From a phage, in the sequence record PX393110.1: a stretch of 64,000 bases of DNA; one strand, given 5' to 3'. Positions 33,009-61,422 of the stretch are shown here, in pieces (the first letter of the stretch is position 1; the number at the start of each line of letters is the position of its first letter). A program made the position numbers and the translations under genes. The notes beneath the pieces are model-generated. The model did not search any database. It was not told where the DNA came from and saw nothing but the letters and a program-made list of their open reading frames with translations.

Positions 33009-35930
33009 ATGGTTAGCATAGTTAGAGGCATATCTGGGATTGCTCGTACAGAAGCTACCGATCCGGTTAAGGATGCCTCTGATTACGAGCATGCCAGGTC
33101 TAAATTGGAAGAAGATCTTATCGGGATTCGTTCTACTGTTAAGATACTCTCCAGCAACGATGTAGATGTAGGTCTTAGCTCTGATGAAGTTAAGACCCTG
33201 AATACACTGATGGGTAAGTTTTATGGTAGGGCTAAGTTCTCTACCCAGGAAGCTGAGCAGCTGATCTCCTTAAGAGATAAAGTCGGCCAGGTTGCGGATA
33301 TGTACGCTACTGCCGAGGATCAAAAGGCCATCGCTGCAGAATCTTTACTCGACACCTATCAGTCAATACTGAATGACTCTAGACTTACTCGTGGCGTCCG
33401 TATGACTGCTATGAGAGAACTGAGTGGGTTACTTCGGGTACTTAACGTATCCAATTCCTCACTCAGTACTATCAATATGCGGAAGAATAACCGCATTATT
33501 GAGCAAGCTAGAGCCGAGTTAGCCAACCAGAACGTAAAGATTAAGTATTCTGATACGGTAAAAGTTGCTAACTTAACGAACAGGAGTAAGGATGAGAGGG
33601 ATACTCTTGACAGATTTAACATACGTCAAACTGGCCGTAATTTAAGGGACTCGTTCCTTAATACCCCATCGCAGTTTTCCGTAGGTTCTGTCCGCAAGGA
33701 AGCACTCTCATCTGGTCTAGGTGCCCTAGGTTTAGGAGACCTGGATAGTGTATTCGGTATATCTGATAAATTGGATGGTGCTATATCATCCATGTTCCGT
33801 AAAAGGAAAGATGAACCGGATACTACTGACGAAGAATTAAAGGCCATATCTCGAGAGATTCTTAAATCGGAAAATAAGCCCGATGGAGAATCTTCCACTG
33901 AGGCCTCTGCTAAAGTTGACGGTAAAGAGACTAAGGTCGAGATTACCACTCCAGATGCTACTGTAAATCCAAAACCCAGTTTCGGCCCTACTCCAGAAGA
34001 GGAGCAGAATCAGAAGCTGGATGAGATTAACAATAGCATTCGAGAGTTAATTAATGAGACTAGGTCTGGTCAGGACGAAATGTCCCGTAAGCAGACTCAG
34101 CTAATTAATGGTCAGTCTACTTTGGTGGATATCGACGAGCAATTGGTGTCGGTAACCAGAGCTAATGGAAGAGCTAACCATGAAGAAATTGATCCTTTCG
34201 CTAACGAACAGAAGCAGGGTGCTGCTGATTCTATCTTTGATGATCTTCTCGGTGGTGATGAGCGTGGCCGTAGAGGTAGAAGAGGTCGTGGAAGAAGAGG
34301 CAGGACTCGTCTCGGTCGTGGACTCAGTAAGTTCGGTAGACTCGGTAGGATGGCAGGCGGAGCAGTCGACGCAGCTGCCACCGGAGGACTTGCGAGAGGT
34401 GCTGCTCGTGGAGGCGGCGCGCTTCTGAGAGCTGGTCTTAAGGGAGCTAAGTTCATCCCAGGAATAGGGTTAGCCGTAACTGCTGGTATGGGAGTTTACG
34501 ATGCTGTCTCTGGATGGGATGGAGATAAGGCTAAAGAGCTATTCGGTAGGGACGATAACTGGGCTAAGGCTGGCTCGTCGGCAGCTTCATTAGCGTCTGG
34601 GTTAACTTTCGGGTTAGCATCTCCAGAGGATGTGGTGAATGTCGCTAAGTCTGCTGTAGATACTGTACAGAAGACATACGAAGGTGCGGTTAATATTGCA
34701 AATAACCTGACGGCATCATTCTCGGGGATGTATAAGAATGCATCTGACTGGCTTTCCCAGACCGCCTCCGATACATCTAAGTGGTTCTCCGATAAGTATA
34801 ATGATTCAGCTAACTGGTTATCCAGTAAGATGGATGATACGACTAAATGGTTTTCCGATAGTTACGATTCGGTAACCAAGTCCATAACAGGAGAAATCAG
34901 TGAATTATCTAACTTGGTTACAGAATTTATCAATGACCCTATGAAGTCTATAGGCGAGGGTATTGGTGGATTGTTCGACTGGCTATCAGACTTACCAGTA
35001 GTCGGTGACTTCTTTAAAGGACTTAAGAAAGGAGCTGCTGCGGTATCCAATGGGATTATCGGAGCAGGTGCCTCCATAGTTAATGGCGCAAGAACTGTTG
35101 GTGGTATAATCTCCAATGGTTATGATAGTGCTGTTGATGCTGGTGGCGGTATCCTACAGTCCGCTATGCAGAATGCCTCTCGATACCTCCCCAGCTCTAA
35201 AGAGCAGACGGAGCGTAAGAATAATCTGGCAGAGTATGCTAAGCAGCAAGGAATCGACGATAAAGAACTGGCTCTATTCATGGGTCAGGTTCAGCACGAA
35301 TCTGGTAACTTCCGTTATAATAAAGAGCTAGCCTCTGGTAGAGCGTACGAAGGTCGTAAAGATCTGGGTAATGTAAATGCTGGTGACGGGGTTCGTTATA
35401 AGGGTCGTGGATGGATACAGCTGACTGGTAGAGCTAATTACCAGAAATATGGTAAGATGCTGGGTATAGATCTCGAGAATAATCCTGAGATGGCCGAAGA
35501 TCCCGAAATCGCCAATAAACTGGCGGTCGCATACTGGAAAGACCGTGTGCAACCTCAGCTGGAGAAGAAAGGAGCTACTGTTGAAGTGGCAACTAAGGCA
35601 GTCAATGGTGGGTATAATGGGTTAGCAGACCGTGCTGCATACACTGCAGAATGGATGAAGAATGGCTCTGATGCTGAGGCATCTAAGTCAGGAGCTACCC
35701 AGGTTGCTCAGAACGTACCTCTCGAGGTTCCTAAAGCTCCTACCCCTACAGACGATGTTAATAAACAACGTCAAGATCAGAATAATCAATTGGCTGCTAT
35801 GGCTGCTGGTTCCACCAGGAACCAGGATCCTGCTGCTACAACTCCTAACGTACCATCAGTGGTTACGGATAAGAGTGACACTATTGATGACTATGGTCTG
35901 GCGTTCTTCAACAAGATGGTGTTCTCATAA
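33009..35930 (+). CDS. Tail tape measure protein with a C-terminal GH19-type lysozyme-like domain
   Basis: 973 aa; long helical region; Arg/Gly tract GRRGRRGRGRRGRTRLGRG; internal repeats (SKWFSDKYNDSANWLSSKMDDTTKWFSDSYDS); C-terminal QVQHESGNF...YKGRGWIQLTGRANY matches the GH19 catalytic region. Confidence 0.65.
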   Translation: MVSIVRGISGIARTEATDPVKDASDYEHARSKLEEDLIGIRSTVKILSSNDVDVGLSSDEVKTLNTLMGKFYGRAKFSTQEAEQLISLRDKVGQVADMYATAEDQKAIAAESLLDTYQSILNDSRLTRGVRMTAMRELSGLLRVLNVSNSSLSTINMRKNNRIIEQARAELANQNVKIKYSDTVKVANLTNRSKDERDTLDRFNIRQTGRNLRDSFLNTPSQFSVGSVRKEALSSGLGALGLGDLDSVFGISDKLDGAISSMFRKRKDEPDTTDEELKAISREILKSENKPDGESSTEASAKVDGKETKVEITTPDATVNPKPSFGPTPEEEQNQKLDEINNSIRELINETRSGQDEMSRKQTQLINGQSTLVDIDEQLVSVTRANGRANHEEIDPFANEQKQGAADSIFDDLLGGDERGRRGRRGRGRRGRTRLGRGLSKFGRLGRMAGGAVDAAATGGLARGAARGGGALLRAGLKGAKFIPGIGLAVTAGMGVYDAVSGWDGDKAKELFGRDDNWAKAGSSAASLASGLTFGLASPEDVVNVAKSAVDTVQKTYEGAVNIANNLTASFSGMYKNASDWLSQTASDTSKWFSDKYNDSANWLSSKMDDTTKWFSDSYDSVTKSITGEISELSNLVTEFINDPMKSIGEGIGGLFDWLSDLPVVGDFFKGLKKGAAAVSNGIIGAGASIVNGARTVGGIISNGYDSAVDAGGGILQSAMQNASRYLPSSKEQTERKNNLAEYAKQQGIDDKELALFMGQVQHESGNFRYNKELASGRAYEGRKDLGNVNAGDGVRYKGRGWIQLTGRANYQKYGKMLGIDLENNPEMAEDPEIANKLAVAYWKDRVQPQLEKKGATVEVATKAVNGGYNGLADRAAYTAEWMKNGSDAEASKSGATQVAQNVPLEVPKAPTPTDDVNKQRQDQNNQLAAMAAGSTRNQDPAATTPNVPSVVTDKSDTIDDYGLAFFNKMVFS

Positions 35931-36565
35931 TGGCAGTATTAGACATCGAGAAGCTATACGCGAATCCAGATGCTAGAATTGTCTTAGTCCATCCTGGTAA
36001 CAAAGCCCGTACTGTAGGTCTGATAGAGACGGATTTCGGATTCGATATTTCGTCTCTGTTTGAATCTGGTGAGAACCTGATGGCTGGCACCTTAACTCGT
36101 GGTGCTAATGCGGTAGCTAATACCGTAGGTATGGATCAGATGGTTATACGAAATATTCGTGAGACCATCGCTCAGTGGCGTGGGAGTACTAAACCGGTAT
36201 TCCCTATACCTCTGACAATTATCTCATACAATCCATCCATCAGACCTCTGGACATAGTTAAAGAGTTCCTGGCTGGGGTAACTTACACCACCAGGAACGG
36301 ACTTATGTTCGGAGCTCCTAATGGGTACTCTGTAACCAAGGCGACTGGTAATTTCAATCCGGATACCGCTATAACAGGTACATGGACTCTGCAGATCGGC
36401 CAGTGGTTCAGGGCAACTAGCCTTATACTCGTGAACGTGTCGACTCAGTACAGCAAGGAAATAGCTCGCTCTACTGGTCAGCCGTTATGGGCTAAGGTTC
36501 AACTGTCCTTTACCCCAGCATATCTGCCGGATGAGGATCATGTAAGATCCTGGTTTATTAAATAG
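35930..36565 (+). CDS. hypothetical baseplate/tail protein
   Basis: ORF track; start overlaps the tape measure stop. Confidence 0.45.
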   Translation: MAVLDIEKLYANPDARIVLVHPGNKARTVGLIETDFGFDISSLFESGENLMAGTLTRGANAVANTVGMDQMVIRNIRETIAQWRGSTKPVFPIPLTIISYNPSIRPLDIVKEFLAGVTYTTRNGLMFGAPNGYSVTKATGNFNPDTAITGTWTLQIGQWFRATSLILVNVSTQYSKEIARSTGQPLWAKVQLSFTPAYLPDEDHVRSWFIK

Positions 36566-36572
36566 GTGACTT

Positions 36573-36950
36573 ATGTTCAAGATAGACTCAGACAAATTGG
36601 CTCAGAGATATGATATCTCTAAATTCATGTCTAATGAGAATGGGTCTATCTTGGACTCTGTCGATTCTGAATTTATGTACAAACTGAAGAATCTTTCTCG
36701 GTATGGTACATATACAGTGATCTCAGAAGTGGGTAGACCCGACCTCCTCTCAGAACGAATCTATGGTGCTGGATTGACTCAGTACTGGTGGATTCTTATG
36801 ATGGTGAATGAGTTGCGGTTCCCATGGGACTTAACCATGAACTTAGTTCTGAGATATCCACTGATTGACGATCTGGAAGATATTTACTTCTCGCTAACTC
36901 CAGATGTGTCATCTGTCTCCGCTACTGCTAAAGTGGAGAGCTTATCATGA
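36573..36950 (+). CDS. Possible LysM-like tail protein (P2 gpX-like)
   Basis: YTVISEVGRPDLLSERIYGAGLTQYWWILMMVNEL resembles a LysM fold segment; baseplate synteny. Confidence 0.3.
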   Translation: MFKIDSDKLAQRYDISKFMSNENGSILDSVDSEFMYKLKNLSRYGTYTVISEVGRPDLLSERIYGAGLTQYWWILMMVNELRFPWDLTMNLVLRYPLIDDLEDIYFSLTPDVSSVSATAKVESLS

Positions 36951-38071: not shown

Positions 38072-38073
38072 GT

Positions 38074-38733
38074 ATGATAAATATGATAGACCTCATGCGC
38101 AATGGTCAGGATCCTCTGAAGGCCATCCATAAGGGAGTAGTCGTTGATAATAACGATCCTGCCCAAAAGTGTAGAGTAAAGGTTAGGGTTCCTGGGGTAC
38201 TCGATGGCGAGGGTATCCCATGGGCCATGCCTATTGCATCTGCATTCCTGGGGGATGGGGAATCTGACCGTGTGGAAATACCAGAAGTAGGTACCGAGGT
38301 ATCTGTATCGTTCCCCACGGGAGATCAGCATTTCCCATTCTACACTGGGAGATGGCACTCTAAGGAAGTGCCAGAAGAGTTTAAAGAGAATTATCCTAAC
38401 AGGTACGGATTTAAGGATTCTACCGGCACTGTATTCTATATAGATAAAGTGTCTAAGGAAGTTCATTTTAAGCACTGTTCTGGATTTCAGTTCGATATTG
38501 ACCAAGAGGCTAATTGGACTCTCACCACTCCAGGAGGAGGTAAGGTCGATATCGCTAAAGCTCTGGAGATAATCGCCAAAGAGCATATCAAACTGGATAC
38601 TCCTCTTGTCGATGGAACAGGAGAGATCAAGGACAAGGTTCGCAAGATGTCGGAAGATCGCGCTATCTACAACGGTCACGATCATGTTGGCGATAGTGGT
38701 GGTAGCACATCTCCGCCTAACTCTAAACAGTAG
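38074..38733 (+). CDS. Baseplate spike protein (gpV / gp5 OB-fold-like)
   Basis: N-terminal GVVVDNNDPAQKCRVKVRVPGVLDGEGIPWAMP matches the conserved gpV/Mu gp45 spike N-terminus. Confidence 0.55.
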   Translation: MINMIDLMRNGQDPLKAIHKGVVVDNNDPAQKCRVKVRVPGVLDGEGIPWAMPIASAFLGDGESDRVEIPEVGTEVSVSFPTGDQHFPFYTGRWHSKEVPEEFKENYPNRYGFKDSTGTVFYIDKVSKEVHFKHCSGFQFDIDQEANWTLTTPGGGKVDIAKALEIIAKEHIKLDTPLVDGTGEIKDKVRKMSEDRAIYNGHDHVGDSGGSTSPPNSKQ

Positions 38734-38737
38734 GTTC

Positions 38738-39109
38738 ATGATGGTTCAGCCAATTTATCGAGATATAGACCAGACTCTTAAGCGTAACTCGCTTAAGGAT
38801 GGTGATGCAGTATTTCAGTCCATAGTTAATGTACTGAAGACTCGCAAAGGTACCAGAATGTTTAATATGGAGTTTGGTTCTAATCTCGAAGATATCATCA
38901 TGGAACCATGCGACGATATAACTGGTCTGCAGGTTTACGCAGAGGTGGTCGACGCTGTTACGAGATGGGAGCCAAGAGCCCTGTTAGACAGAGGTAAAAC
39001 TAAGGTTACTCCTGATCCGGATAATCACATATTCTGGGTAGACTTATGGTTCTCTGTTAAAGGAATCGATGGTCAAGAATTTAACTATGAGGTGGGTCTG
39101 AAACGATGA
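38738..39109 (+). CDS. Baseplate wedge protein (gp25 / gpW-like)
   Basis: 123 aa from the ATG at 38738; KGTRMFNMEFGSNLEDIIMEP resembles the GPW/gp25 core motif; the track start lies inside the upstream gene. Confidence 0.5.
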   Translation: MMVQPIYRDIDQTLKRNSLKDGDAVFQSIVNVLKTRKGTRMFNMEFGSNLEDIIMEPCDDITGLQVYAEVVDAVTRWEPRALLDRGKTKVTPDPDNHIFWVDLWFSVKGIDGQEFNYEVGLKR

Positions 39110-41950: not shown

Positions 41951-41958
41951 GTGATTAG

Positions 41959-42726
41959 ATGAGCAATTATACTGGGGCATTTAACTTCCCTGCTCAGGTG
42001 TACCAATTTGAAGAGAGTGATGTGGTTAAAGGTGGTCCGGACGGCGTTGATAACGTGCCTCTTACCCAGCTTTCCGACCGTACGTTTTATCTTAAGGCTC
42101 TTGCAGATTTCACATTCCTTAAGCTGTTCAATCTGAACCCTCTCGGATCATTCAAAGAAGGATTCCAGATTAACGTGGCTGGGTATGCAGTCTTCGACGA
42201 GGCCTCCGGTAAGTGGTTTAAGTGGACAGGATCTCTGCCTAAAGTGGTGGTTAAGTCTTCTAAGCCCGAAACTACTGGCGGTATCTATGATCCGGTCACT
42301 AATCCGAGCGGTAAGTGGGTGGCTATTGACTTCAGTGTTCTAGACCTTGGCGCTGGGGTTAAGATCCCTACAGCAGCTGCTCTTGGTAATCTGTATAGCG
42401 GTAAGTACAATCCTGCCTTCGTTAAGATTGAGAATGTCTCCAATCTGGACATAGCAGAAGCTACATATACCCGACTCGGGAATGTAGTTACTGTTAATGG
42501 CAAGATCACTGCTTCTGCTACTGATGCTGGAGAAGTAATGAAAATCGGAATTGGCTTACCTATTAACTCTACCTTCTCAGATGACTCAAGTCTCTCAGGA
42601 GTTGGTGTTGGTGTAGTAGCTGGTCAGATTTATGCCGATGTGGACAGTAGCGTGGCTGTTCTTGAGATTAATCAGGGTAGTACAGACGAGCTGTCTCTGA
42701 GATACACGTTCTCTTACACTGTATAA
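41959..42726 (+). CDS. Tail fibre protein carrying the shared N-terminal module
   Basis: N-terminal segment (GGPDGVDNVPLTQLSDRTFYL...SGKWFKWTGSLPKVVVKSSKPETTGGIYDP) is shared with the 42739 protein. Confidence 0.55.
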   Translation: MSNYTGAFNFPAQVYQFEESDVVKGGPDGVDNVPLTQLSDRTFYLKALADFTFLKLFNLNPLGSFKEGFQINVAGYAVFDEASGKWFKWTGSLPKVVVKSSKPETTGGIYDPVTNPSGKWVAIDFSVLDLGAGVKIPTAAALGNLYSGKYNPAFVKIENVSNLDIAEATYTRLGNVVTVNGKITASATDAGEVMKIGIGLPINSTFSDDSSLSGVGVGVVAGQIYADVDSSVAVLEINQGSTDELSLRYTFSYTV

Positions 42727-42738
42727 TAGGATATCGAA

Positions 42739-45648
42739 ATGGGTGCTTATCAGGGTAAAAATCAGTACGTAGAGGACATCTATACCTTCGAACGTACTGA
42801 CAAAGTGTCGGGTGGAGATGACGGTATTGATAACGTACCCATTAAGAATCTCACCGACAGAACTACATATCTCCGTAGTTTAGCATTGAATTCATTCCTG
42901 GATATCTATGGGGTTAATCCTGTAGGTACTTTCGGAATAGGGTTTGATCTTCAGGAATCTGGGGACGGAGTGTACGATGAGGTATCTGGCAAATGGTATT
43001 ACTGGCTGGGCTCCTTCCCCAAATCTGTTGCCGAGAACTCATCTCCGGAAGATACTGGAGGTATTTTCGACCCAGAAAGTAATCCTGATGGGTTATGGAC
43101 TGAGGTAATTCCGGTAAACCAGCGTCAGGTGGACATGATAGCTCGGGCATTCAGAGTTAAGACAGAGGAAGTCCAGTTCATGAAAGTAGGTCGTCCTCTC
43201 GACGGCTTTCGTGTACTGTATGACTTAACTTCTCAGGAAGCCTATCGTTTGCCGATGGATATTCCAGAAGGATCAACTGTCGTCAGTCTAACAGCTGGTG
43301 GATGGCTCGTACACAGCAATGGTGGGGTGGACTTATCTGCCTATGCTGTTGAATTAGAAGAGTACAAGCACTTTACTGGGGGAGACTTCAGTACTGGCTT
43401 TACTCTACGTCAGAACCACTGCGTAGTTATGTATGACGGTGTTATGTATCGCTGGGATGGGGATTTTCCTAAAACAGTAAATGACAACAGTACTCCCGAA
43501 GAAGATGGTATCGGTGAAGGTAAATGGGTGGCGGTGGGTCCAAATTCCAAATTGCTTTATAACATTACCTGGGATGGATCATATCCAGATCAACCAGTTA
43601 TGGACGACCGCACCCAGAGATTAAATCTACCACTACCGGTTCAAACTAATAAACTGGTGGATGACGTTGTACGTCTGCGCGAGACCATTTCAACTCTGGA
43701 CGAGAAGGTGGCTACCGTTGGAAACGATGGTAAGATCCCGGTCGAGCAGATCCCAGCAGTAGCTATAACTGAAACATTTCCTGTCTCGAGCCAGGATGAG
43801 ATGTTGGCTCTCAATGCCCAGAAGGGAGACATTGCCATCCGTGACGACAATAGCCTGAGCTACATTCTGATGAATGAGCCAGCTTCCACGTTGGAAAACT
43901 GGAAGAAGTTCAAGAATGACGCTCTGGTGCAGTTAGGTAAGAACGGCGGTGTGAATCTGGTTAGTGGAGCTATCCATGCAGCCACGGATCAGGATTCACT
44001 TACTTTCGAGAACATAACAATTTCCGGTGAAGTATATAGTCACGACCCTAGCATATCTGGATTGGTTGAAGGATTCTCTGTCTATAACGGTAATTTATAT
44101 CTCACTCGCAATCAGATATCTTACAAGCTGTTGTCCAAAAGAAATAAGTTGCGCTGGCCTGGTCTGTACCTCTCTGGTGTAACTGATATGAAATCTTCGA
44201 TTGAGGCCATTATGAGCCATGGCCTCCACGTTGATCTTGATGGGAATGCTATCAGCGTATCTACCTTAAATATCACCAAAAATCTTTATAATGGTGAAAT
44301 CATTGCTACTGGAGATACCGGCTCGTTCATTACTGTGAACTCGTGCAAGCTGCTTAGAACCAGGATCAACTGTAACAATAAGGCTATACGCCGTGCTGTG
44401 CATCTGAAAACTGGTTCAATCCGTCCTACTTTGAAAAACACTGAGATTTTTGACAGTTCCGGAGCTACTAATGCAAATGGTGTCTTTATTGACGCGAATA
44501 ACATCACCGATTTCCTAGTAGAGGGCGTGTATGTCCATAATCTCACCTCTGTAGCTAATGGATCACAGGGAGATGCAGATGGTCCGTGCCGTGGGATTAT
44601 CGTTGGCACGGCTCTTGACCCAGCGCCATCTGAGGCCACGGTATCTAGCGGAGAAATTAATAATGTACGTATCCGCGACTTGGCACCTTTCGAGGACTGC
44701 GATGGTGTTGTGGTTCAGATTTACGATGCCTCGTCTGTAATGCTTAGAGCATCTAAAATCCGCGTCAAAAACGTTGATACTCACAATGTCAGGAAGAGAG
44801 CCGTCAAGATTCAGGCGAACGATGTCACCGTGAGCAACGTCTATGCTTATTGCGATACAACCGATACAGCAATGTATTCAATCGTCAGTCTATATGGTGA
44901 TAATGGGTATGCTGAGAATGTCACCGGACGAGGACGCATCAGTAATGGCATAGATTGCGCTTACGGCTTCAACAGAGTTAGCACACTTCACCTTAAAACC
45001 GAACGCACGGGTGCCGATACCCTTGCTGGGATTGGAGCAGGGTTGCTTATCAACTCCGGGCAAGTGGAAGCCAGTGGTATCTATTCCGAAGGTGCGGAAT
45101 ATGTTCTTGCTATCAGGGATGCCCTTGGCGTGACACCTTACGTCAAAGTCTCTGGTCTTCGCGGGCAGGGTTACAGCGGAGTGGCTCGTTTCCAGATACG
45201 AGCCGGAAACTCTATCGGCAGCGTTTACATTGACGACGTTTCGGCAAATTCCTCGGCAACAAATAAATCGGCGATATCCGTAGACATAACGTCCAATGGA
45301 ATAGGACTGGTAAATATCTCGGACGTGAAACGACTAAGTCAGCCATTCACCGGAGCAGACATTAATATGTCTGGGGCTGTCACGGAGGCAATTTTCCGCG
45401 ATTGTATTCTAAATTCTGGAAGCTCTACTGTTGGTATTTCCATGGCAACAGGAAAACTGACTGTTGAGAATATCAGTGCCCCTAGTAAGACGTATGCAGT
45501 TCAAGCTGTTCAGACGAGTAATTCATGGCTGAATAATATCGACGGAATAGTGCGTCTTGAGAATACGGCGAACACCAGACTTGGCCTCTATCGCGGAGTT
45601 TCTTCAGCTGGCACAAACACTGGTCTTCTCACGTTGAATTATGCGTAA
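42739..45648 (+). CDS. Tailspike protein (969 aa) with shared N-terminal module and beta-helix-like C-terminal region
   Basis: N-terminus GGDDGIDNVPIKNLTDRTTYL...SGKWYYWLGSFPKSVAENSSPEDTGGIFDP; long repetitive region consistent with a depolymerase-type spike. Confidence 0.55.
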   Translation: MGAYQGKNQYVEDIYTFERTDKVSGGDDGIDNVPIKNLTDRTTYLRSLALNSFLDIYGVNPVGTFGIGFDLQESGDGVYDEVSGKWYYWLGSFPKSVAENSSPEDTGGIFDPESNPDGLWTEVIPVNQRQVDMIARAFRVKTEEVQFMKVGRPLDGFRVLYDLTSQEAYRLPMDIPEGSTVVSLTAGGWLVHSNGGVDLSAYAVELEEYKHFTGGDFSTGFTLRQNHCVVMYDGVMYRWDGDFPKTVNDNSTPEEDGIGEGKWVAVGPNSKLLYNITWDGSYPDQPVMDDRTQRLNLPLPVQTNKLVDDVVRLRETISTLDEKVATVGNDGKIPVEQIPAVAITETFPVSSQDEMLALNAQKGDIAIRDDNSLSYILMNEPASTLENWKKFKNDALVQLGKNGGVNLVSGAIHAATDQDSLTFENITISGEVYSHDPSISGLVEGFSVYNGNLYLTRNQISYKLLSKRNKLRWPGLYLSGVTDMKSSIEAIMSHGLHVDLDGNAISVSTLNITKNLYNGEIIATGDTGSFITVNSCKLLRTRINCNNKAIRRAVHLKTGSIRPTLKNTEIFDSSGATNANGVFIDANNITDFLVEGVYVHNLTSVANGSQGDADGPCRGIIVGTALDPAPSEATVSSGEINNVRIRDLAPFEDCDGVVVQIYDASSVMLRASKIRVKNVDTHNVRKRAVKIQANDVTVSNVYAYCDTTDTAMYSIVSLYGDNGYAENVTGRGRISNGIDCAYGFNRVSTLHLKTERTGADTLAGIGAGLLINSGQVEASGIYSEGAEYVLAIRDALGVTPYVKVSGLRGQGYSGVARFQIRAGNSIGSVYIDDVSANSSATNKSAISVDITSNGIGLVNISDVKRLSQPFTGADINMSGAVTEAIFRDCILNSGSSTVGISMATGKLTVENISAPSKTYAVQAVQTSNSWLNNIDGIVRLENTANTRLGLYRGVSSAGTNTGLLTLNYA

Positions 45649-45653
45649 CAGTG

Positions 45654-45673
45654 CCCCCGCTGCTTGGCGGGGT
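45654..45673 (+). terminator. Possible terminator or structural hairpin after the tailspike gene
   Basis: CCCGC-TGCTTG-GCGGG hairpin immediately after the stop; no clear U-run. Confidence 0.3.
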
Positions 45674-45863
45674 CCCACCAACCGGAGGTCAACTACACTT
45701 ATGAATAAGGTATCCATAAAGTTTAGTAGCCTGATTTATGGCAGGTTCACGCTATCTACAAAAAGTGAAAATCATAGTCATAATGTAGGTGATTATGATT
45801 TTAACCAAGAGGAACTTACTCTCTGGTTTGGGAATTAGTATATAATATATTATAGGTGAATAA

Positions 45864-48848: not shown

Positions 48849-48968
48849 TAAATAAAGCTTTTTTACCGTAGGTAGGGGGGCTTCAATTTAAGATTTAACT
48901 TAAACCAATTACCACTCTAAAGTTACTAAGTATTTGTACATCATGTAATATTTTTATGGAGATCACCA

Positions 48969-51590
48969 ATGGGCGGTCGTTCTAGGTTATTTAGCGAACT
49001 GGGCGGAGCTCCTCTTAATACTTATCAGCATGATAATCAGACTCTCGATATTCGCGAGTTAGAGAGTCAGCAGAAAGTATTAGACGAGACTCTTGCCGAA
49101 ACAATCGGCGATGTTAGCGAACTACAGCAGACTGCTGGACAGTCTATGTATATCCTCGGTAACTACGCTGCTGGAATGGTGATCGAGAACGACCGCCAGT
49201 ACGTCAGACATGAGAATCTGCTGTACTACTGGACTGGTCCTGTACCGTTTACCACTACTGGTAACTTCTACGAAGAATCCTACTGGACTGGTGGGGTGCA
49301 GAGTGGTATCGAATGGAGCTACGAAGTACAGGAAGATGGTGAGTTTGAGTTTGAAGTACCATACTCCTTCACCAGCGTACGCCTGTTCGTGGGTGGCGCT
49401 CGCCTTACTCGCGTAGAAGATTACACTATCGATGTGATTAATCGCAAGATCACTCTGACTAAGATTAAACTGTCGAAGGGCGTCCTGGTAACTGCCGAGC
49501 TGAATTCTCGTGATGCTCTCAGCGTTACCCAGGATCGCATCGATAGCCTTACCAGAGAGATCTCAGAGAAAGTAGGCTTTGTTAACTACAAACTTACTGA
49601 TCTGTCGGAAGGTCAGAGCCTTACCCTAACTACCAGAGTTCAGACTGTAAGCTTCTCACTAAATGGGGAGTATTACAAATGGGATGGTGTTCTTCCTAAA
49701 GTCGTTAACTATGGAGATCCGGAACCAGCTCAATCTGAGCAGGGTACTGGTAAGTGGATTCCTGTAGGTTCTGGCGCCTTGAAATCAGAACTGGGCAAAG
49801 TCAGCGACACTACTGGAGCGGTTCTTGTAGCTCTACCACAAGGCGGTAACGTGGCGAACGGTATTCGCTATGTAACTCCCGAAATGGCTGGTGCTAAAGG
49901 AGATGGTACCACTGATGACACCACAGCCGTTCGTAACGTTGTAGCTCTCGCCAAATTAACTGGTCTTAAAATCACCGGTGGAGCGAACTATAAGATCTCG
50001 AATGCTTCAATCGATATCTCTGGTACTGTCATTGAGAACCTACGTCTTAAAGGAAGTGGGTCTAGCTCTATACTGCTAGTTAATGGCAATACTGCCATAT
50101 CTAATCTAACCCTAAATAGGGTAGGTATTAGACACACTAACGGTATCTTAAACCTGGACAAATTTGAGATCAATGACTGTAGTGCTACTGCGGCTATTTT
50201 AAGCCTTCAGCTAACATCACCTGGACAAATATTTCTCACCAATGGTGTTATGCGTCGTTGTAATTACGGTTACCTTCGTCAGGGATCTCCAGCTTCTTCC
50301 CAGCCGCTGACTACTTCATTACTTCGGAATTTACAATTCTTCGATATGAAGGGTGATCCAATCGAGATCAATCTGGCGATAGCTGATACCAACACTACTA
50401 TCGATCAAATAACCATAGATAACGTGGACTCCACAGCTACCGGGAATACTAACTGGGGTATTGCTATAGGCTTAGCTGGGATGGGTAACTACTCACCCAC
50501 TGCCGCAGACTCAGAGTACATGTCTGATGTAACCATAAGTAATATTAAGATTACCGGAGCCAAACAGTGTCTGCACTTGGAGAAATGCAGAAACATTAGA
50601 ATCAGAAATATCGACATACATCCGGATTCCACTAAGTCAACCGGAGTTGGGTTGGATACTGGTGGTTTCATAGCTTATGGATGTAAAGAGATATACGTGG
50701 ATGGTGTAACTGGGTCTCCAACCAACGGAACGGAAGATATGATTCGTTTCGCTTGGGGATCTGTTAACAATGCGTTTACCTTCGCTCATCGAAATGTGCA
50801 CTTAAGAAACGTCAATGTAACAGGTACTGTTAAAGTGGAGGTTAGCTGTTCTGATACCCTAGCTTCGACTGTAGAGATGAGAAATATCAATGCAACAACG
50901 ATATCTCTCCAAGGCATGGCGTCTGAATACCAGCTGTCAGATTGGTCCGCTGAGAAGATGGTGTTGGATTTCAGATATGTTAGCGGAGATGCTAGAGATA
51001 ATTACCGTAGAAATGCGTGGTCAATTGCTACCATCAGTAATTTGAAATGCCTGAATTCTAACACTGGCGCTCCTGAGGTTACTGTACAGAACATCACTGT
51101 GGATACATTGGAAGTTTCTGGGTGTAACTTCCCTATCCAGAAGACTTTAACTGCTACCCATTGGAGAGGAACTCCTGCATGGCGGCAGAATGGTATTATT
51201 TACCACTCTAAGACCGGAACTCCTTATGGCATGGCTCTTCTTGCTGGTGACACTATCGTTGCTAGTGACGGAACTATGTTCACGGTGACCTCCCCTGGAG
51301 CTCTGTTCTACTCAAACGAAACTGTTGCGGCCGCTACTGCTGGGTCTAACGCTATTCGTTCTAAAACTAACCTTAACTGGACTGGTCAGTATTATAAGAC
51401 TGCTGGGTGTAAGGTTAAAATAGCAGGAGGTGGAGGTGCTGACGGCTCTGATTACATCGGTACTATTGTCCGCAGTGGTTATATTAACAGTGGTAATTAC
51501 TACTTTGATGTTTACCCACCACTTCAGTCTAACGTACCTGATGGCGCAGTATTAACTTCCGTAGAAGTACCAGCCTTTAAAACAGTTTAA
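48969..51590 (+). CDS. Tailspike / tail fibre protein (873 aa), beta-helix-like
   Basis: W-G-P-K motif (YYKWDGVLPKVVNYGDPEP); repeated short beta-rung-like segments. Confidence 0.5.
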   Translation: MGGRSRLFSELGGAPLNTYQHDNQTLDIRELESQQKVLDETLAETIGDVSELQQTAGQSMYILGNYAAGMVIENDRQYVRHENLLYYWTGPVPFTTTGNFYEESYWTGGVQSGIEWSYEVQEDGEFEFEVPYSFTSVRLFVGGARLTRVEDYTIDVINRKITLTKIKLSKGVLVTAELNSRDALSVTQDRIDSLTREISEKVGFVNYKLTDLSEGQSLTLTTRVQTVSFSLNGEYYKWDGVLPKVVNYGDPEPAQSEQGTGKWIPVGSGALKSELGKVSDTTGAVLVALPQGGNVANGIRYVTPEMAGAKGDGTTDDTTAVRNVVALAKLTGLKITGGANYKISNASIDISGTVIENLRLKGSGSSSILLVNGNTAISNLTLNRVGIRHTNGILNLDKFEINDCSATAAILSLQLTSPGQIFLTNGVMRRCNYGYLRQGSPASSQPLTTSLLRNLQFFDMKGDPIEINLAIADTNTTIDQITIDNVDSTATGNTNWGIAIGLAGMGNYSPTAADSEYMSDVTISNIKITGAKQCLHLEKCRNIRIRNIDIHPDSTKSTGVGLDTGGFIAYGCKEIYVDGVTGSPTNGTEDMIRFAWGSVNNAFTFAHRNVHLRNVNVTGTVKVEVSCSDTLASTVEMRNINATTISLQGMASEYQLSDWSAEKMVLDFRYVSGDARDNYRRNAWSIATISNLKCLNSNTGAPEVTVQNITVDTLEVSGCNFPIQKTLTATHWRGTPAWRQNGIIYHSKTGTPYGMALLAGDTIVASDGTMFTVTSPGALFYSNETVAAATAGSNAIRSKTNLNWTGQYYKTAGCKVKIAGGGGADGSDYIGTIVRSGYINSGNYYFDVYPPLQSNVPDGAVLTSVEVPAFKTV

Positions 51591-51614
51591 TAGATTAAAC
51601 TGAGGAGATTATTG

Positions 51615-53066: not shown

Positions 53067-53082
53067 TTAAACGGAGACTACT

Positions 53083-53904: not shown

Positions 53905-53915
53905 CGGAGTAATAA

Positions 53916-56900: not shown

Positions 56901-56960
56901 TCTCTGTCTAACCCAGTTAACCGTCCGTTCGTTAAGAACGTTCGCGCATACTTTAGCTAA
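53916..56960 (+). CDS. Large tail fibre / tailspike protein (1014 aa)
   Basis: Largest ORF of the fibre cluster; Thr/Ser/Gly/Val-rich beta-type composition. Confidence 0.5.
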   Translation: MATLPSDYFNRFAAKKNYAKHLFIADRPLQSSELNEIQDQQLNNVSTLSGFLVGDGAITDGADISALGDGVISITEGTLIYAGMAMNVPAVTDASFPTAGEAVLGVSISDKVITYLDDPELLMQYQNSPSYGSAGADRLQKVTTWLLADDVPEGDTFFPVFYFKNGVLVKTTKSRNDLDQFSGLLGRYDSDTHGNYVLDGLTLSYAGIDGSTQQIMLNMAAGKARVLGNEALFAYESTVRLDPINDTGNVASEPYVFTAGTYTYQLRYSVIDQVTAVSGTKQVTRTVTHGSATGSSDLLPDTPVLQIISVQQGGTVYVKGSDYVQNGDSVDWSPTGNEPSPGSTYQVTYQYIDQFIPTWNDTSITISTSDALVSGSTFYVTYSYFLSRYDRVSIDASGAVQITKGIPAILANAQLPGTSATLLSIATIRLTKGQDPVINNDRIEVVTYNELKDLMSLVSDMQYNIAQLSLRDETRSTDPTTTKKGVVVDSLLNGNMRDDGLTNNAIVDEGQLFIGASFSRQSSLAPDGLMLSFTDTVIQSQEFRTKDTRINPYAGSGQVPQAMISVSPAKIDTRGFWSYFHGGFLPVDTTITIKLSGYAANEQIDLTFRNLAVVTLVADDNGTAQYAHMLSGGLINGTYQYVATGKTTKAVTRGTVTIYNSGRVDYGQNWTGGAVPWGYDPVAQTFTIQATRDINAVSIYLTELPTNTLQIKLVPTKVGIPDSTQLYGFGEVPANKCVLGWNKINLRYPVTVTGGTEYSIIVATANYQGKVATAKINGYDTDKKQYVVNQPAQGVLLTSANESTWSPVQDEDLMYRLHATNYGSTRTVNLGSVTVASNTNSLSLTADIETPANTSVRFYLTNGTDNINLNVNSETYTENFSGTFSLMAEFNTGDPTVSPKVFGGVIFRSGTTDTPGVYTQRQFSIPNGNVTPVTLNVILDQYVPSGASVTVQYQNGSNWVALTGGTGTALGDGWYTVPYKLSGVNVANTRIRIILSLSNPVNRPFVKNVRAYFS

Positions 56961-56969
56961 GGAGTAAAC

Positions 56970-57146
56970 ATGTCTAGCAACGAACCATGGTTCAAGACTG
57001 GATTCGAAACCGAGATACCGGCCGTAGCGCCGGTAAACTCAATCTTCCAGTCCTTACAGGGTAAAAGATGGAGATTTGATGGCCAGGGATGGGTCGAAAT
57101 AGAGTCTCTACAGGCGGCTCTCCAGAGAAAACAGGCTCAGAAATGA
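56970..57146 (+). CDS. Small protein (58 aa), below the ORF-track threshold
   Basis: ATG at 56970 preceded by AAGGAGTAAAC; translation MSSNEPWFKTGFETEIPAVAPVNSIFQSLQGKRWRFDGQGWVEIESLQAALQRKQAQK; fills the gap between the fibre and endolysin genes. Confidence 0.4.
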   Translation: MSSNEPWFKTGFETEIPAVAPVNSIFQSLQGKRWRFDGQGWVEIESLQAALQRKQAQK

Positions 57147-57170
57147 GTCTTAACTAGGTAGGGGTATAAT

Positions 57171-57818
57171 ATGGGCGTTACACTTGACCAGCTGAAGAAG
57201 TTCCTCCCAACGACTTCAACGGAAGTACTGGAAAAGCTACTGCCTGCCATTAATACTACTATCGAGCGTTACGGTATCAATACCAATCGTCGTCTGCGCT
57301 ATTTTATGGCGCAGACTGCTTTTGAAACTCGGGACTACACTAAATTTGTGGAGTCCCTGTATTATACCACTGCGTCTCGTCTGGTAGATGTATGGCCGAG
57401 CAGATTTACTCTTCGTGGCGAGCCTGGGAAGCTTAATGCGACTGCTTATATACGCGATTCAGAGAAATTGGCTAATCAGGTATATGCTAATCGCATGGGT
57501 AACGGGAATCCGGCCAGTGGTGATGGGTACAAGTACATTGGTCGTGGCGCGATGCATCTAACTGGCAAAGCAAACTATCGTGAAGCCTCATTGGATATCT
57601 TCGGCGATGACCGTTTGGTAGAAGACCCAGAGTTAGTCGCGACGGATTTCGAGACGATCATGCTTACTGCAGGATGGTTCTGGGATAAAAATAAATTAAA
57701 TCAATTAGCAGATCAGGACGCATTCACCAAAGTAACCCAGAAGATAAATGGGTCTGCTGCGACCGTACCTGACCGACTGCCTGTACTACGCAGAGCAAAT
57801 CAGACTTTAACTCTTTAA
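57171..57818 (+). CDS. Endolysin, GH19-type (chitinase-class lysozyme)
   Basis: FMAQTAFETRDY and GDGYKYIGRGAMHLTGKANY match the GH19 catalytic core. Confidence 0.7.
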   Translation: MGVTLDQLKKFLPTTSTEVLEKLLPAINTTIERYGINTNRRLRYFMAQTAFETRDYTKFVESLYYTTASRLVDVWPSRFTLRGEPGKLNATAYIRDSEKLANQVYANRMGNGNPASGDGYKYIGRGAMHLTGKANYREASLDIFGDDRLVEDPELVATDFETIMLTAGWFWDKNKLNQLADQDAFTKVTQKINGSAATVPDRLPVLRRANQTLTL

Positions 57819-57832
57819 TATGGTGATCAATA

Positions 57833-58249
57833 ATGGACAATATCCTGGATGTAATTGATGGCACCAAGATCGATGATTACATCGCTCTTGCACTAGCCAT
57901 CATCGGCTTCGCATCAGTGCTGGTGCAAGCTCTGGAGAAGATCGCTAAGATCACTCCTAATACTAAAGACGACGAATACATTGGGGTAATTAAGAAATAC
58001 CTCGGTTATGCATCGTCCATCTTAAACTTCGTCGCTCTGAACTTGCCTAAATCAGCTGCCAGGGTAGATAAGAAAGCTGCCGCTCAGGATGAGCAGAAAG
58101 TGCAGACCATGGATAAAGCTAAGCAGGTTCTTTCCGACGTAGTCCAAACTCAGGATGATCCGCACCTAGTGAGTAAGGCTACCCAGGCTATTGATGCCCT
58201 TGATTACGGTAAGTCTCTGATCAAAAATCCAGAGGGTAAAAAGGAGTAA
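57833..58249 (+). CDS. Membrane protein, holin candidate
   Basis: 138 aa with one hydrophobic segment (YIALALAIIGFASVLVQAL); directly downstream of the endolysin. Confidence 0.35.
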   Translation: MDNILDVIDGTKIDDYIALALAIIGFASVLVQALEKIAKITPNTKDDEYIGVIKKYLGYASSILNFVALNLPKSAARVDKKAAAQDEQKVQTMDKAKQVLSDVVQTQDDPHLVSKATQAIDALDYGKSLIKNPEGKKE

Positions 58250-58252
58250 GGT

Positions 58253-58483
58253 ATGAAAGCTCTTACTCTTATTCTTCAGCTTATTACCCTACTCGTATCT
58301 GCTATGCAGACTCGCTCTCGGGAGAAGAAAGATGAAGAAATTAAAAATGACCCTACTGGTGCTTGGGAGTCTAAGTTTGGTAAGCTGCAACAGCCTACCG
58401 GTACAGATGCAGACGCCGAAGGTAAGGTGCGACCGTCCACCGATAGCAGCGATAGCGGAAAAAGACGGGATCAGGATTCCTAA
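58253..58483 (+). CDS. Putative i-spanin (N-terminal TM segment)
   Basis: 76 aa; N-terminal hydrophobic helix ALTLILQLITLLVSAM; strong RBS AAGGAG; overlaps the lipoprotein ORF in another frame. Confidence 0.4.
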   Translation: MKALTLILQLITLLVSAMQTRSREKKDEEIKNDPTGAWESKFGKLQQPTGTDADAEGKVRPSTDSSDSGKRRDQDS

Positions 58484-58541
58484 CGCTGAATTAGCTAAAT
58501 TGGTATCTTATATAGATTGCCTAGAGAGCAATCAGAAGTGA
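58332..58541 (+). CDS. Putative o-spanin (lipoprotein, lipobox LVSC)
   Basis: 69 aa; signal peptide MKKLKMTLLVLGSLSLVSC with lipobox cysteine; starts inside the i-spanin candidate in the +1 frame and extends beyond it. Confidence 0.45.
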   Translation: MKKLKMTLLVLGSLSLVSCNSLPVQMQTPKVRCDRPPIAAIAEKDGIRIPNAELAKLVSYIDCLESNQK

Positions 58542-58551
58542 GGAATCTTGT

Positions 58552-58884
58552 ATGCGCGAGAGGGAAGAGTCTGAGTTCGGTGGACACCAACTCGATAGGC
58601 TAGCGAGACTTGAATCTAACCAGAAGTTTCAGGGAGTAATCCTTGATCAACTTATGGAGTCTTCTCGTAAGCAGACGGAGATATTAGCGGATATCCGTGA
58701 GCTAGTCGTTGCACAGAATTTCATGTCTAAGAAGATTTCTGACCTTGAAGATGAGCAGGATGATCTAAGGAAGGAGATTAAGGAAGTAAATGACAAGATT
58801 AAATTCTGGAGTGGTGCGTTAGCAATTATTAGTGTACTGGTAGGATTGTTTAACGACGCCATCATCGGCATCTTTAAGCACTAA
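58552..58884 (+). CDS. Coiled-coil protein with C-terminal transmembrane anchor (lysis-associated?)
   Basis: 110 aa; heptad-rich N-terminal region, C-terminal hydrophobic segment WSGALAIISVLVGLF; last gene of the plus-strand block. Confidence 0.35.
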   Translation: MREREESEFGGHQLDRLARLESNQKFQGVILDQLMESSRKQTEILADIRELVVAQNFMSKKISDLEDEQDDLRKEIKEVNDKIKFWSGALAIISVLVGLFNDAIIGIFKH

Positions 58885-58890
58885 ATAAAT

Positions 58891-58925
58891 GGGACTCACT
58901 CGTGATAGAGTGAGTCCCATTTTTG
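58891..58925. terminator. Bidirectional rho-independent terminator at the convergent junction
   Basis: 11-bp stem GGGACTCACTC / GAGTGAGTCCC with a 7-nt loop; TTTTT on the plus side and an A-rich run on the other side. Confidence 0.7.
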
Positions 58926-58936
58926 TGTAGATTAAT

Positions 58937-59179
58937 TTAGTTATGACGATTCCACATCTCGACCATAAGCCCCAGCTCACGATCAGCAACTGCTTCATCT
59001 TCCATATCTAAATCAGTAACCACTTCATGGTCGTCCCATTTACAGTTAGGACACTCCAGATGTAAGTGGTTATTCTCGTCAAGACGTAGAGTGGGGTGCT
59101 CTTTACAGTTATAGCATACCTTCACTATCCCTGCCTTACACACTCCCTCTAGTTTGATGTTTAATTTCATCAAGTCCAT
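58937..59179 (-). CDS. Small zinc-ribbon protein
   Basis: 80 aa; CYNC...CPNC pairs. Confidence 0.45.
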   Translation of the reverse strand: MDLMKLNIKLEGVCKAGIVKVCYNCKEHPTLRLDENNHLHLECPNCKWDDHEVVTDLDMEDEAVADRELGLMVEMWNRHN

Positions 59180-59733
59180 CAGATACTCCGTACAAATAAT
59201 TCCCGGAATGGTTTAATTACCTTCTCTACTTCAGCATCCATCTTGGTTTCTGACTTACCAGATAAGATATTGAAAAGAGATACACGAACGGCCTCCCGAA
59301 CCGACTCTTGAGTCATATCGACCTTGCCTTCATACGCTGAATAAATAGTCTGGCAGTTGCTAAGTAAAAATACTAGCTCTACCGCCTGATGAACGACTTC
59401 TTGATACTGCTGGTCGCGCTCGATAGCTTCGTTCATCTTAGGAGTGTGTGGATTATCGCAGATTTCCCAGGTCTTTACGATATCAGGATTAGCGAATACA
59501 TCGGACGATTTAATACCTATCGACACTTTAAGTAGACGGTGCTTAATACCGTTATTGGTAATAGTCAGATCGTGCATAGCATGACGAAGAGCTTGCTCGA
59601 ATTCAAAGCTAGACTCTCGGACTACTATATCATAGCTCTCAGCCTGGTCGATAGGACGGACTGTTAGAACGAGTACTGCTGTACCTCCCAACATACCGAT
59701 TAGGTTGTCTATATCCATATTACTCAAAGTCAT
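59179..59733 (-). CDS. hypothetical protein (184 aa)
   Basis: ORF track; start/stop overlaps with neighbours. Confidence 0.45.
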   Translation of the reverse strand: MTLSNMDIDNLIGMLGGTAVLVLTVRPIDQAESYDIVVRESSFEFEQALRHAMHDLTITNNGIKHRLLKVSIGIKSSDVFANPDIVKTWEICDNPHTPKMNEAIERDQQYQEVVHQAVELVFLLSNCQTIYSAYEGKVDMTQESVREAVRVSLFNILSGKSETKMDAEVEKVIKPFRELFVRSI

Positions 59734-60092
59734 TTCTTTACCTTCTTATAGAACTTGTGGTCGCCTATTCTGGCTGTCATTCTATAGCCCTTCCAGTTAG
59801 GCCTAACCTTTACATTATGAAAGTGAGTAGCCCCGAATGTGGGATCTTCACTGTATTTAACTCTTGCCGCAATATGAATAGCAGATGCCTTAGATTTAGG
59901 ATCTTTCATATTCTGGTAAGAGATGTGACGGTACCACGGAAAGGTATTCCTGTTTTTAACTACCTTACATGGGCTTATACCGTATTTCTTCGCTCGGTTG
60001 AGTACCACGTGGGCTACAGCTAACTGCCCACGTTCCGACTCTCCCCTGGCCTCATAGTAGACGACCATAGCTACGCAATCGGCAGAAGTCAT
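59730..60092 (-). CDS. Cell-wall hydrolase, SleB/CwlJ-like (Hydrolase_2 family)
   Basis: MVVYYEARGESERGQLAVAHVVLNR matches the conserved N-terminal motif of SleB-type hydrolases. Confidence 0.55.
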   Translation of the reverse strand: MTSADCVAMVVYYEARGESERGQLAVAHVVLNRAKKYGISPCKVVKNRNTFPWYRHISYQNMKDPKSKASAIHIAARVKYSEDPTFGATHFHNVKVRPNWKGYRMTARIGDHKFYKKVKK

Positions 60093-60123
60093 AGTTCATT
60101 CCAAATTAATCATCCGTGACGGA

Positions 60124-60501: not shown

Positions 60502-60513
60502 AATTTCTCCTAA

Positions 60514-61340: not shown

Positions 61341-61422
61341 ATTCCTCGGTTCTATGGTAGAATAACATTGACCTCTCCGCAAAGAGGTCAATAGTAATTA
61401 CCGTAGTCTAACTACCCCAGGA

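Follow-up and report, generated by a model that had tools for sequence, protein, structure and literature searches.

The sequence analysed here is a stretch of 64,000 nucleotides of phage DNA (sequence record PX393110.1), the whole of which is referred to below as the window. The analysis confirmed that it encodes three predicted peptidoglycan-cutting domains: one within the tail tape measure protein, one in the lysis cassette, and one that constitutes a small stand-alone enzyme among nucleotide-metabolism genes, as listed in Table 1. The first two are assigned to the GH19 family and the third to the SleB/CwlJ-type Hydrolase_2 family. We lean slightly towards the view that the three modules are used at different stages of infection, with the GH19 domain of the tape measure acting at entry, the GH19 endolysin at lysis, and the Hydrolase_2 protein in an accessory capacity.

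The three open reading frames (ORFs) had been pointed out in an earlier note on this DNA, and all are present where it placed them. That note named hidden Markov model (HMM) searches as a means by which the family memberships might be refuted; when these searches were run with hmmscan, all three assignments lay above the Pfam cut-offs of 25.5 bits (PF00182) and 27 bits (PF07486). The three genes are all under purifying selection, with ratios of nonsynonymous to synonymous substitution rates (dN/dS) of 0.05–0.11. No fourth peptidoglycan hydrolase was found by Pfam among approximately 40 further ORFs of the window, a survey that covered the head genes and ORFs shorter than about 100 amino acids (aa) incompletely.

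Table 1. Positions of the muralytic genes and associated features in the window (TMD, transmembrane domain; nt, nucleotides).
Feature	Position	Strand	Basis or remarks
Tape measure protein, 973 aa, GH19 near C-terminus	33009..35930	+	Position, Trp repeats, weak PHROG matches
22-aa insertion KWFSDKYNDSANWLSSKMDDTT, two 11-residue Trp-repeat units	34779..34844	+	Protein alignment
GH19 muramidase-type domain (predicted), aa 736–885	35214..35663	+	PF00182
Baseplate spike, 219 aa, OB-fold only	38074..38733	+	Pfam Phage_base_V E = 1.3e-12, aa 20–95
GH19 endolysin, 215 aa	57171..57818	+	PF00182, phrog_181
Holin candidate, 138 aa, one TMD at aa 16–34	57833..58249	+	Hydropathy 2.26; immediately 3′ of endolysin
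Overlapping spanin-like pair	58253..58541	+	76-aa ORF 58253–58483; 69-aa ORF 58332–58541, different frame
110-aa coiled-coil protein, C-terminal TMD	58552..58884	+	Hydropathy 2.26 at aa 90–108; final plus-strand lysis gene
SleB/CwlJ-type Hydrolase_2 catalytic domain, 120 aa, leaderless	59730..60092	-	PF07486; catalytic Glu14 at nt 60051–60053

Relatives of the window phage

Judged by its sequence, the window phage is an E. coli phage closely related to Escherichia phage vB_EcoM_IME392 (MH719082, here IME392), a myovirus of 116 kb. Over the window segments 33009–36000 and 57000–61200, nucleotide identity is 95–96% to IME392 and approximately 92% to Escherichia phage EP_H11 (OP688485), and the phage collection contained no further DNA-level matches to these two queries. 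When the full proteins served as queries, word-indexed searches gave only 5 and 8 homologues, and an exhaustive HMMER search and tblastn were used instead. Full-length homologues of the tape measure were found in five protein clusters only, among 5.8 billion, which indicates a small lineage. The comparisons below also include contigs L005–L007, the 75%-identical metagenomic relative L008, and the distant Vibrio phage Va2 (128 kb), in which the major capsid protein, large terminase subunit and sheath are 30%, 32% and 40% identical, respectively.

The lineage is already in GenBank, and all three modules have clear precedents in other phages, as described below. The value of the present assignments lies mostly in annotation: the public relatives give the tape measure incomplete or misleading names, “putative glycoside hydrolase” being used for IME392 and “membrane-bound lytic murein transglycosylase D precursor” for EP_H11 (79881–82718), and they leave the Hydrolase_2 ORF either without annotation (IME392, 105377–105739) or as “hypothetical” (EP_H11, 58469–58831). 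The three domains, which represent two different folds, are also candidate enzybiotics.

The tape measure protein

The identification of the 973-residue ORF as the tape measure protein is supported by its being the sole candidate in the tail region. The gene order there is sheath (29268–31067), tube (31078–31602), two small ORFs, the 973-residue ORF, and then ORFs of 211, 125 and 374 amino acids, followed by the spike, a gp25-like protein and a gp6-like wedge protein (Pfam and PHROG assignments). We take this to be a tail gene order of the Mu/P2 type. No other ORF between the tube gene and the baseplate hub/spike genes is long, and the same order is found in L008 and Va2.

Tryptophans 581, 592, 603 and 614 of the protein have an exact spacing of 11 residues. 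Belcaid et al. are said to have described, in 2011, tandem repeats of tape measure proteins in which aromatic residues have this spacing. The insertion listed in Table 1 is absent from IME392, EP_H11 and L008, and the blastn match breaks at 34794–34836, which is the site of the insertion. The protein also has hydrophobic stretches rich in Gly and Ala, its C-terminal tail is conserved, and the dN/dS of its gene is 0.05–0.08. Gene order, the 11-residue Trp spacing, the difference in length by two repeat units, and the weak PHROG matches described next all agree with the earlier note, which had already called this protein the tape measure.

Several observations weigh against the identification. 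In the hmmscan search the ORF did not match any Pfam tape-measure domain, and the PHROG tape-measure families phrog_167, phrog_1272, phrog_4200 and phrog_4070 match residues 520–730 weakly, with E values of 4e-5 to 3e-4. A full-length AlphaFold2 (AF2) model consists, according to DSSP, almost entirely of long helices, but its mean predicted local distance difference test (pLDDT) score is only 37, making the model unreliable and too poor for fold searches. These points, and the names given to the protein in GenBank, would suit, rather than a tape measure, a distinct lysin associated with the tail or the baseplate, or else an unrelated protein to which a second endolysin has been fused. We consider this highly improbable: the interval from tube to baseplate would then be without any ORF of tape-measure length, and the Trp repeats, the two-unit insertion or deletion among relatives, the hydrophobic stretches and the conserved C-terminal tail all argue for a tape measure, as do the position and architecture of the corresponding ORF in Va2, which are alike.

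We note that the length of a phage tail follows that of its tape measure at approximately 1.5 Å per residue. If this rule holds, the 22-residue insertion would make the tail of the window phage approximately 3 nm longer than those of its relatives. Directly upstream of the tape measure, at the position expected for a tail assembly chaperone, lies an ORF of 276 amino acids (32100–32930). Its match to PF12322 T4_baseplate, at 24.9 bits, is marginal (the cut-off being 24.5), and it also matches phrog_150, “baseplate hub.” A chaperone pair linked by a frameshift was not identified.

The GH19 domain of the tape measure

Within the tape measure, PF00182 (Glyco_hydro_19) matches residues 750–849 (nt 35256–35555) with 37.8 bits and E = 2.4e-9, and phrog_181 “endolysin” matches the protein with E = 2.7e-38. 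The earlier note had located the domain at about 35220–35460, and the motifs that it quoted do lie within this range, at nt 35286–35441. The predicted catalytic glutamates are Glu764 (nt 35298–35300) and Glu773 (nt 35325–35327). The H763-E764...E773 residues and the motif GRGWIQLTG, which contains Q804-L-T806, are invariant in five members of the lineage; H763/E764/E773, Q804 and T806 correspond to H50/E51/E60, Q127 and T129 of PaGH19Lys, a proven muramidase without chitinase activity, in which E51 and E60 are catalytic and H50, Q127 and T129 are found in the cleft (PMC12329726). The GH19 segment matches 39 GH19 chains of the Protein Data Bank (PDB) at E < 0.01, the best match being the 182-residue PWe2 endolysin 9MS7 (E = 8.6e-23), with the HES...E residues aligned. 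The domain is the best conserved part of the tape measure, with dN of 0.077 versus approximately 0.2 elsewhere in the comparison with L008, and a domain dN/dS of 0.03–0.05.

The nearest relatives of this domain are stand-alone GH19 proteins of approximately 190–260 residues from Acinetobacter, Sphingobium and metagenomes, with 55–63% identity. Its identity to the endolysin GH19 of the same phage is 30% over 112 residues, so that the description of the endolysin as a “divergent” GH19 in the earlier note was appropriate. Since the two are only 30% identical and the tape-measure domain has closer relatives elsewhere, the two GH19 domains are independent acquisitions, and the one in the tape measure derives from another GH19 subgroup than the endolysin. 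An origin of the tape-measure domain by duplication of the endolysin was considered, and is ruled out by the same identities.

As part of the tail tape measure, the GH19 domain would be a component of the virion. The baseplate spike has no lysozyme domain according to Pfam and PHROG, consisting of the oligonucleotide/oligosaccharide-binding fold (OB-fold) alone, and it matches phrog_430 only at positions 10–124 of the 868-position profile. The GH19 domain of the tape measure is therefore the only recognisable virion lysin. We propose that after contraction of the sheath the tape measure would be expelled through the tip of the tube, and that its GH19 domain would then cut the bonds that join N-acetylmuramic acid (MurNAc) to N-acetylglucosamine (GlcNAc) in the sacculus locally, allowing the tube and the DNA to cross. 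In this way it may replace the lysozyme that T4 bears on its spike protein gp5. We infer this role in entry from the architecture of the protein and from the precedent of phage TM4, described below.

The endolysin and the lysis cassette

The second GH19 protein, of 215 residues, is matched by PF00182 at residues 101–183 (36.0 bits, E = 8.2e-9), by phrog_181 “endolysin” with E = 6.5e-60, and over its full length by PaGH19Lys (9EOI, E = 9.5e-29). Its residues Glu52 (nt 57324–57326) and Glu61 (nt 57351–57353) align with the catalytic E51 and E60 of PaGH19Lys. The rest of the active site gives some reason for caution over an equivalent activity, in that Phe51 is found in place of H50 and His129 in place of Q127 (motif GRGAMHLTG); the equivalent of T129 is kept. 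The protein has no signal sequence or TMD, its maximum 19-residue hydropathy being 0.60, and the dN/dS of the gene is 0.05–0.11.

The genes that follow the endolysin have the features of a lysis cassette. The holin candidate matches phrog_9685, a family of unknown function, with E = 5e-16. In the overlapping pair after it, the 76-residue ORF has a hydrophobic N-terminus and the 69-residue ORF has a lipobox (LVSC), making it o-spanin-like, and shows a weak match to phrog_3198 “Rz-like spanin” (E = 6e-4). The 110-residue coiled-coil protein has no family match in PHROG or Pfam, and is a candidate for a second holin, an antiholin or a spanin. On this gene content the segment 57171–58884 is a conventional holin–endolysin–spanin cluster. 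The identification of the 215-residue protein as a canonical holin-dependent endolysin is supported by its lack of a leader and by the holin candidate and spanin-like genes alongside. The term “dedicated endolysin” in the earlier note is thus well founded, given the adjacent single-TMD protein and the lipobox ORF that overlaps the ORF upstream of it. The endolysin would be cytoplasmic and would be released by the adjacent holin candidate, with the spanin-like pair coming after it.

The Hydrolase_2 protein

The 120-residue ORF on the minus strand matches PF07486 (Hydrolase_2) with 73.4 bits and E = 2.5e-20 across the complete profile (positions 1–100 of 100), and phrog_938 with E = 1e-22. The AF2 model of the protein has a pLDDT of 92. 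In a Foldseek search its only significant PDB matches were the SleB catalytic domains 4FET and 4F55, with template modelling (TM) scores of 0.73–0.78 over 119 columns, a probability of 1.00, and approximately 25% identity. Family and fold are thus of the SleB/CwlJ type, as had been suggested from the sequence. Glu14, in the motif YYEARGE, aligns with the Glu of YGESRGE in Bacillus cereus SleB (4F55); we take the catalytic Glu of this YGE motif in SleB to be E157. Glu14 and 25 other columns are invariant across Hydrolase_2 homologues of 45–99% identity, and the chemistry of the enzyme is probably lytic transglycosylase-like.

The Bacillus SleB/CwlJ proteins (4F55, 4FET) have the same catalytic-domain fold and the same conserved catalytic Glu; however, SleB additionally has a signal peptide and an N-terminal peptidoglycan-binding domain, both of which are missing from the window protein. 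The latter shares the fold, yet is no orthologue of SleB. The peptidoglycan of E. coli is not known to contain muramic-δ-lactam, which SleB requires, and the substrate specificity of the phage enzyme must therefore differ from that of SleB.

The protein is small (13.9 kDa) and very basic, with an isoelectric point (pI) of 10.1 and a Lys-rich C-terminus. It contains no signal peptide or TMD, and its maximum 19-residue hydropathy is 0.50. The ORF is maximal and is preceded by a weak GGA Shine–Dalgarno sequence; the distance to the upstream gene is only 31 nt, which leaves no room for a leader. A signal-arrest-release (SAR) or signal-anchor segment at the N-terminus was also considered and ruled out, the hydrophobic run there being approximately 10 residues long and forming the first helix of the modelled catalytic domain.

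The neighbours of the gene on the minus strand include those for dCTP deaminase, dUTPase and an exonuclease. In the relatives the order is dUTPase, a 68-residue ORF, dCTP deaminase, a 123-residue ORF, Hydrolase_2, a 178-residue ORF, an 80-residue ORF, and then the convergent lysis cassette. Each of the five related sequences examined (IME392, EP_H11 and contigs L005–L007) retains the Hydrolase_2 ORF intact and in synteny, and the dN/dS of the gene is 0.11 against an 80%-identical orthologue. The earlier note had placed the gene among minus-strand early genes and apart from the lysis genes. The strand and the nucleotide-metabolism neighbours are as it described; the word “early” is a deduction from the presence of dCTP deaminase, dUTPase and the exonuclease. 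The separation from the lysis genes holds as regards the strand, but the gene is the third from the convergent junction, and only approximately 850 bp from the end of the cassette.

The downstream ORF, of 184 residues, overlaps the Hydrolase_2 gene by 4 nt. This ORF was examined as a dedicated holin, as has been proposed for phage CB7, and rejected, since its product is no membrane protein: its orthologues in L005 and L007 have an Arg in the hydrophobic stretch, and there is no family match. We also note that identity to IME392 is mosaic in this region. Only 1 of the 363 nt of the Hydrolase_2 gene differs (99.7% identity), against nucleotide identities of 92.6% for the adjacent 184-residue ORF, 90.2% for the dCTP deaminase and 92.3% for the endolysin. 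The contrast between 59730–60092 and its flanks (59179–61137) suggests a recent recombinational exchange of a small block.

The role of the Hydrolase_2 protein

Our default reading is that the Hydrolase_2 protein serves as an accessory holin-dependent lysis enzyme, of another fold than the GH19 endolysin. This is the weakest step of the proposed scheme, and we put it at little short of an even chance. The protein would be a bare SleB-type (lytic-transglycosylase-fold) domain acting after the holin has permeabilised the membrane; because it has no export signal, peptidoglycan would be within its reach only once the holin has breached the membrane. A role in lysis is further supported by the fact that the family can be used as the primary endolysin of Gram-negative phages, as in Yersinia phage PYps3T, where the Hydrolase_2 gene directly follows the holin. 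For all three modules, expression timing and bond specificity are likewise what we infer.

Hydrolase_2 homologues are numerous, occurring in 1,112 phage records and in 9,260 representative clusters, and some of what is known of them speaks against a role in holin-dependent lysis. By a motif heuristic, 83 of 157 close database representatives have a hydrophobic leader and at least 41 of the 157 are leaderless like the window protein, a share put at about 30%. The family is often found in DNA-metabolism modules distant from holins. These leaders and locations hint at a function that is not tied to holin-dependent lysis. In addition, Va2 does not have the gene, which must therefore be dispensable for this virion architecture, and a scan of the window at 56.8–64 kb for promoters and terminators gave counts no higher than those of shuffled controls.

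The leaders and locations would suit an enzyme that is expressed early and acts on the sacculus before lysis, whether by remodelling it, by priming lysis, or by interfering with superinfection or cell division. Such a function would be in keeping with the wide occurrence of the family and with the orphan copies found in DNA-metabolism or early modules of unrelated lineages (PAK_P3, T5-like SH9, and phi92/PVP-SE1-like phages). It would also be in keeping with the signal peptide or TMD present in most homologues examined, which implies export independent of a holin: SH9 gp095 has a classical signal peptide and PAK_P3 gp151 an N-terminal TMD, and the Certrevirus CB7 member, CB7_83, has a signal peptide and is toxic on expression in E. 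coli (PMC7344957). The protein of the window lineage, by contrast, is without an export signal, and the periplasm would be unreachable for it before the membrane is breached. Nor would it be expected to find a substrate in the cytoplasm, since muramidases and lytic transglycosylases cleave the MurNAc–GlcNAc bond, which is present only in polymerised glycan. We therefore consider action before lysis unlikely for this protein.

A broader version of this idea is that the orphan Hydrolase_2 proteins encoded in early or DNA-metabolism modules in over 1,000 genomes of Gram-negative phages form a distinct class that acts before, or independently of, holin–endolysin lysis, taking in T5-like, PAK_P3-like, Vequintavirinae, phi92-like, IME392-like and other phages. 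We regard this as speculative and quite unlikely; if it were true, the leaderless protein of the IME392 lineage would be a derived, holin-gated member of the class.

It is also conceivable, though very unlikely in our estimation, that the protein, packaged into virions or else ejected along with the DNA, aids entry beside the GH19 domain of the tape measure. Its small size, high pI, Lys-rich C-terminus and lack of a leader would be compatible with this, and Iyer et al. found PF07486 in some “polyvalent” proteins that they proposed to be incorporated in the virion (PMC5512222). However, the gene has nucleotide-metabolism neighbours and belongs to the minus-strand arm, which is non-structural, the tape measure already supplies a virion lysin, and mass spectrometry of PA5oct virions did not detect the SleB-domain protein of that phage (PMC7318152). 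Finally, we give almost no credence to the gene being a redundant or decaying passenger without function: it is absent from the distant Va2 and was left unannotated in IME392, but the low dN/dS, the invariance of Glu14 and the 25 other columns, and the intact, syntenic ORF in every one of the five relatives all speak for a functional protein.

Other features of the window

Four consecutive ORFs (41959–42726, 42739–45648, 45864–48848 and 48969–51590) encode proteins with a Tail_spike_N (TSP1/Gp66) adaptor domain. The third of these is a complete endosialidase tailspike, with End_beta_propel (E = 9e-204) and a C-terminal chaperone domain. The set at 41959–51590 implies a branched multi-tailspike apparatus that would include a K1-capsule depolymerase. 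The segment 43529–45847, which contains most of the 969-residue tailspike ORF at 42739–45648, has no blastn match in IME392 60000–109000, where its counterpart consists of approximately 5 kb of different tail-fibre genes. This difference looks like a swap of receptor-binding modules between close relatives.

On the minus strand, the genes for dCTP deaminase and dUTPase are near neighbours, at 60514–61137 and 61423–61893. A 2025 paper counts IME392 among the phages that have a YerA41-like DNA polymerase, and examines dCTP deaminase and dUTPase genes in the context of a 5-hydroxymethyldeoxyuridine (5-hmdU)/hypermodified-thymidine pathway (PMC12686479). The DNA of the window lineage may be modified. 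At 61194–61220, a perfect (ATT)9 microsatellite encodes a run of nine Asn in a small minus-strand ORF (61137–61391); no ATT/AAT run of four or more units is present in the compared sequences of IME392, EP_H11 and contigs L005–L007. Also among the nucleotide-metabolism genes on this strand are those for an RyR-domain protein (61890–62270) and a DUF4326 protein (62533–62883). The RyR assignment follows what Pfam annotates on the L005 orthologue, and the protein has strong matches to PHROGs of unknown function. Elsewhere, a 921-residue ORF at 2385–5150 (minus strand) combines an Mre11/SbcD-type Metallophos nuclease (aa 1–184) with a Rad50/SbcC-type ATPase that has a zinc-hook motif, two functions that are usually found in separate proteins.

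Comparison with known systems

The fusion of a GH19 domain to a tape measure is seen most clearly in Va2. Its protein QPB08518.1 (1064 aa, “putative glycoside hydrolase”) has a C-terminal GH19 domain, like the window ORF, with 40% identity over residues 735–950, and it occupies the same place in the order sheath, tube, two ORFs, long ORF, hub and VgrG-like spike. The similarity to the body of the window tape measure is weak. Unlike the window phage, Va2 lacks both a Hydrolase_2 gene and a separate endolysin of the GH19 family, and its core proteins are 22–40% identical. The same fusion and gene order in so distant a phage indicate that the fusion is older than the present lineage. A metagenomic tape-measure-like protein of 1450 residues also carries GH19.

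More remote parallels are found in jumbo phages, which are unrelated to the window phage. Erwinia phage PhiEaH1 gp147, a tail protein of 2222 residues, has a GH19 domain near its C-terminus, as here, 84% of the query domain aligning with it at 54.7% identity; Pseudomonas phage EL and other jumbo phages have GH19 in giant tail proteins that are annotated “tail fiber protein.” These proteins are more than twice as long as the window tape measure, and no homology to it was seen outside the GH19 part.

Tape measures with other muralytic motifs provide the functional precedent. We take Pb2 of phage T5 to be a tape measure with an embedded peptidoglycan hydrolase motif. In mycobacteriophage TM4, the tape measure has an embedded peptidoglycan hydrolase motif, Tmp motif 3 (PMC1796659). 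As in the window protein, the muralytic domain of these tape measures is found near the C-terminal part; it is delivered to the wall on ejection of the tape measure, as is proposed here. The window tape measure differs in having GH19, a muramidase/chitinase fold, instead of an Rpf-like, LysM or M23 peptidase motif, and in belonging to an E. coli myovirus with a contractile tail.

The endolysin belongs with PaGH19Lys (9EOI) and the SPN1S endolysin (4OK7), which are muramidase endolysins of the GH19 family, from Gram-negative phages and from tailocins. For the Hydrolase_2 protein, the closest parallel in lysis is gp83 of PYps3T, a member of the Chaseviridae, which belongs to the same family and likewise comes from a phage of a Gram-negative host; it differs in its location directly after the holin, in having an N-terminal signal or SAR-like segment, and in being annotated as the endolysin of a holin–endolysin pair.

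The genomic setting of the window protein has its parallels elsewhere, in phages whose replication or nucleotide-metabolism module encodes a small Hydrolase_2 protein, the endolysin beside the holin being a different one. In PAK_P3, gp151 sits between the ligase and DprA, and gp28 has been named as the putative endolysin (PMC5563952). T5-like Salmonella phages, which include SH9 with its gp095, have a second, orphan Hydrolase_2 in the replication module and the other enzyme beside the holin (PMC11180984); phi92/PVP-SE1-like phages have an orphan Hydrolase_2 apart from the primary endolysin (PMC12210895); and in Phapecoctavirus an orphan second Hydrolase_2 is again found in the replication module (PMC10793346). 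The arrangement in the window is therefore a further instance of a recognised pattern. The Hydrolase_2 protein of the IME392 lineage is leaderless, unlike SH9 gp095 with its signal peptide and PAK_P3 gp151 with its TMD, and as such it provides a data point on why many Gram-negative phages keep a second muralytic enzyme of the SleB fold among their replication genes.

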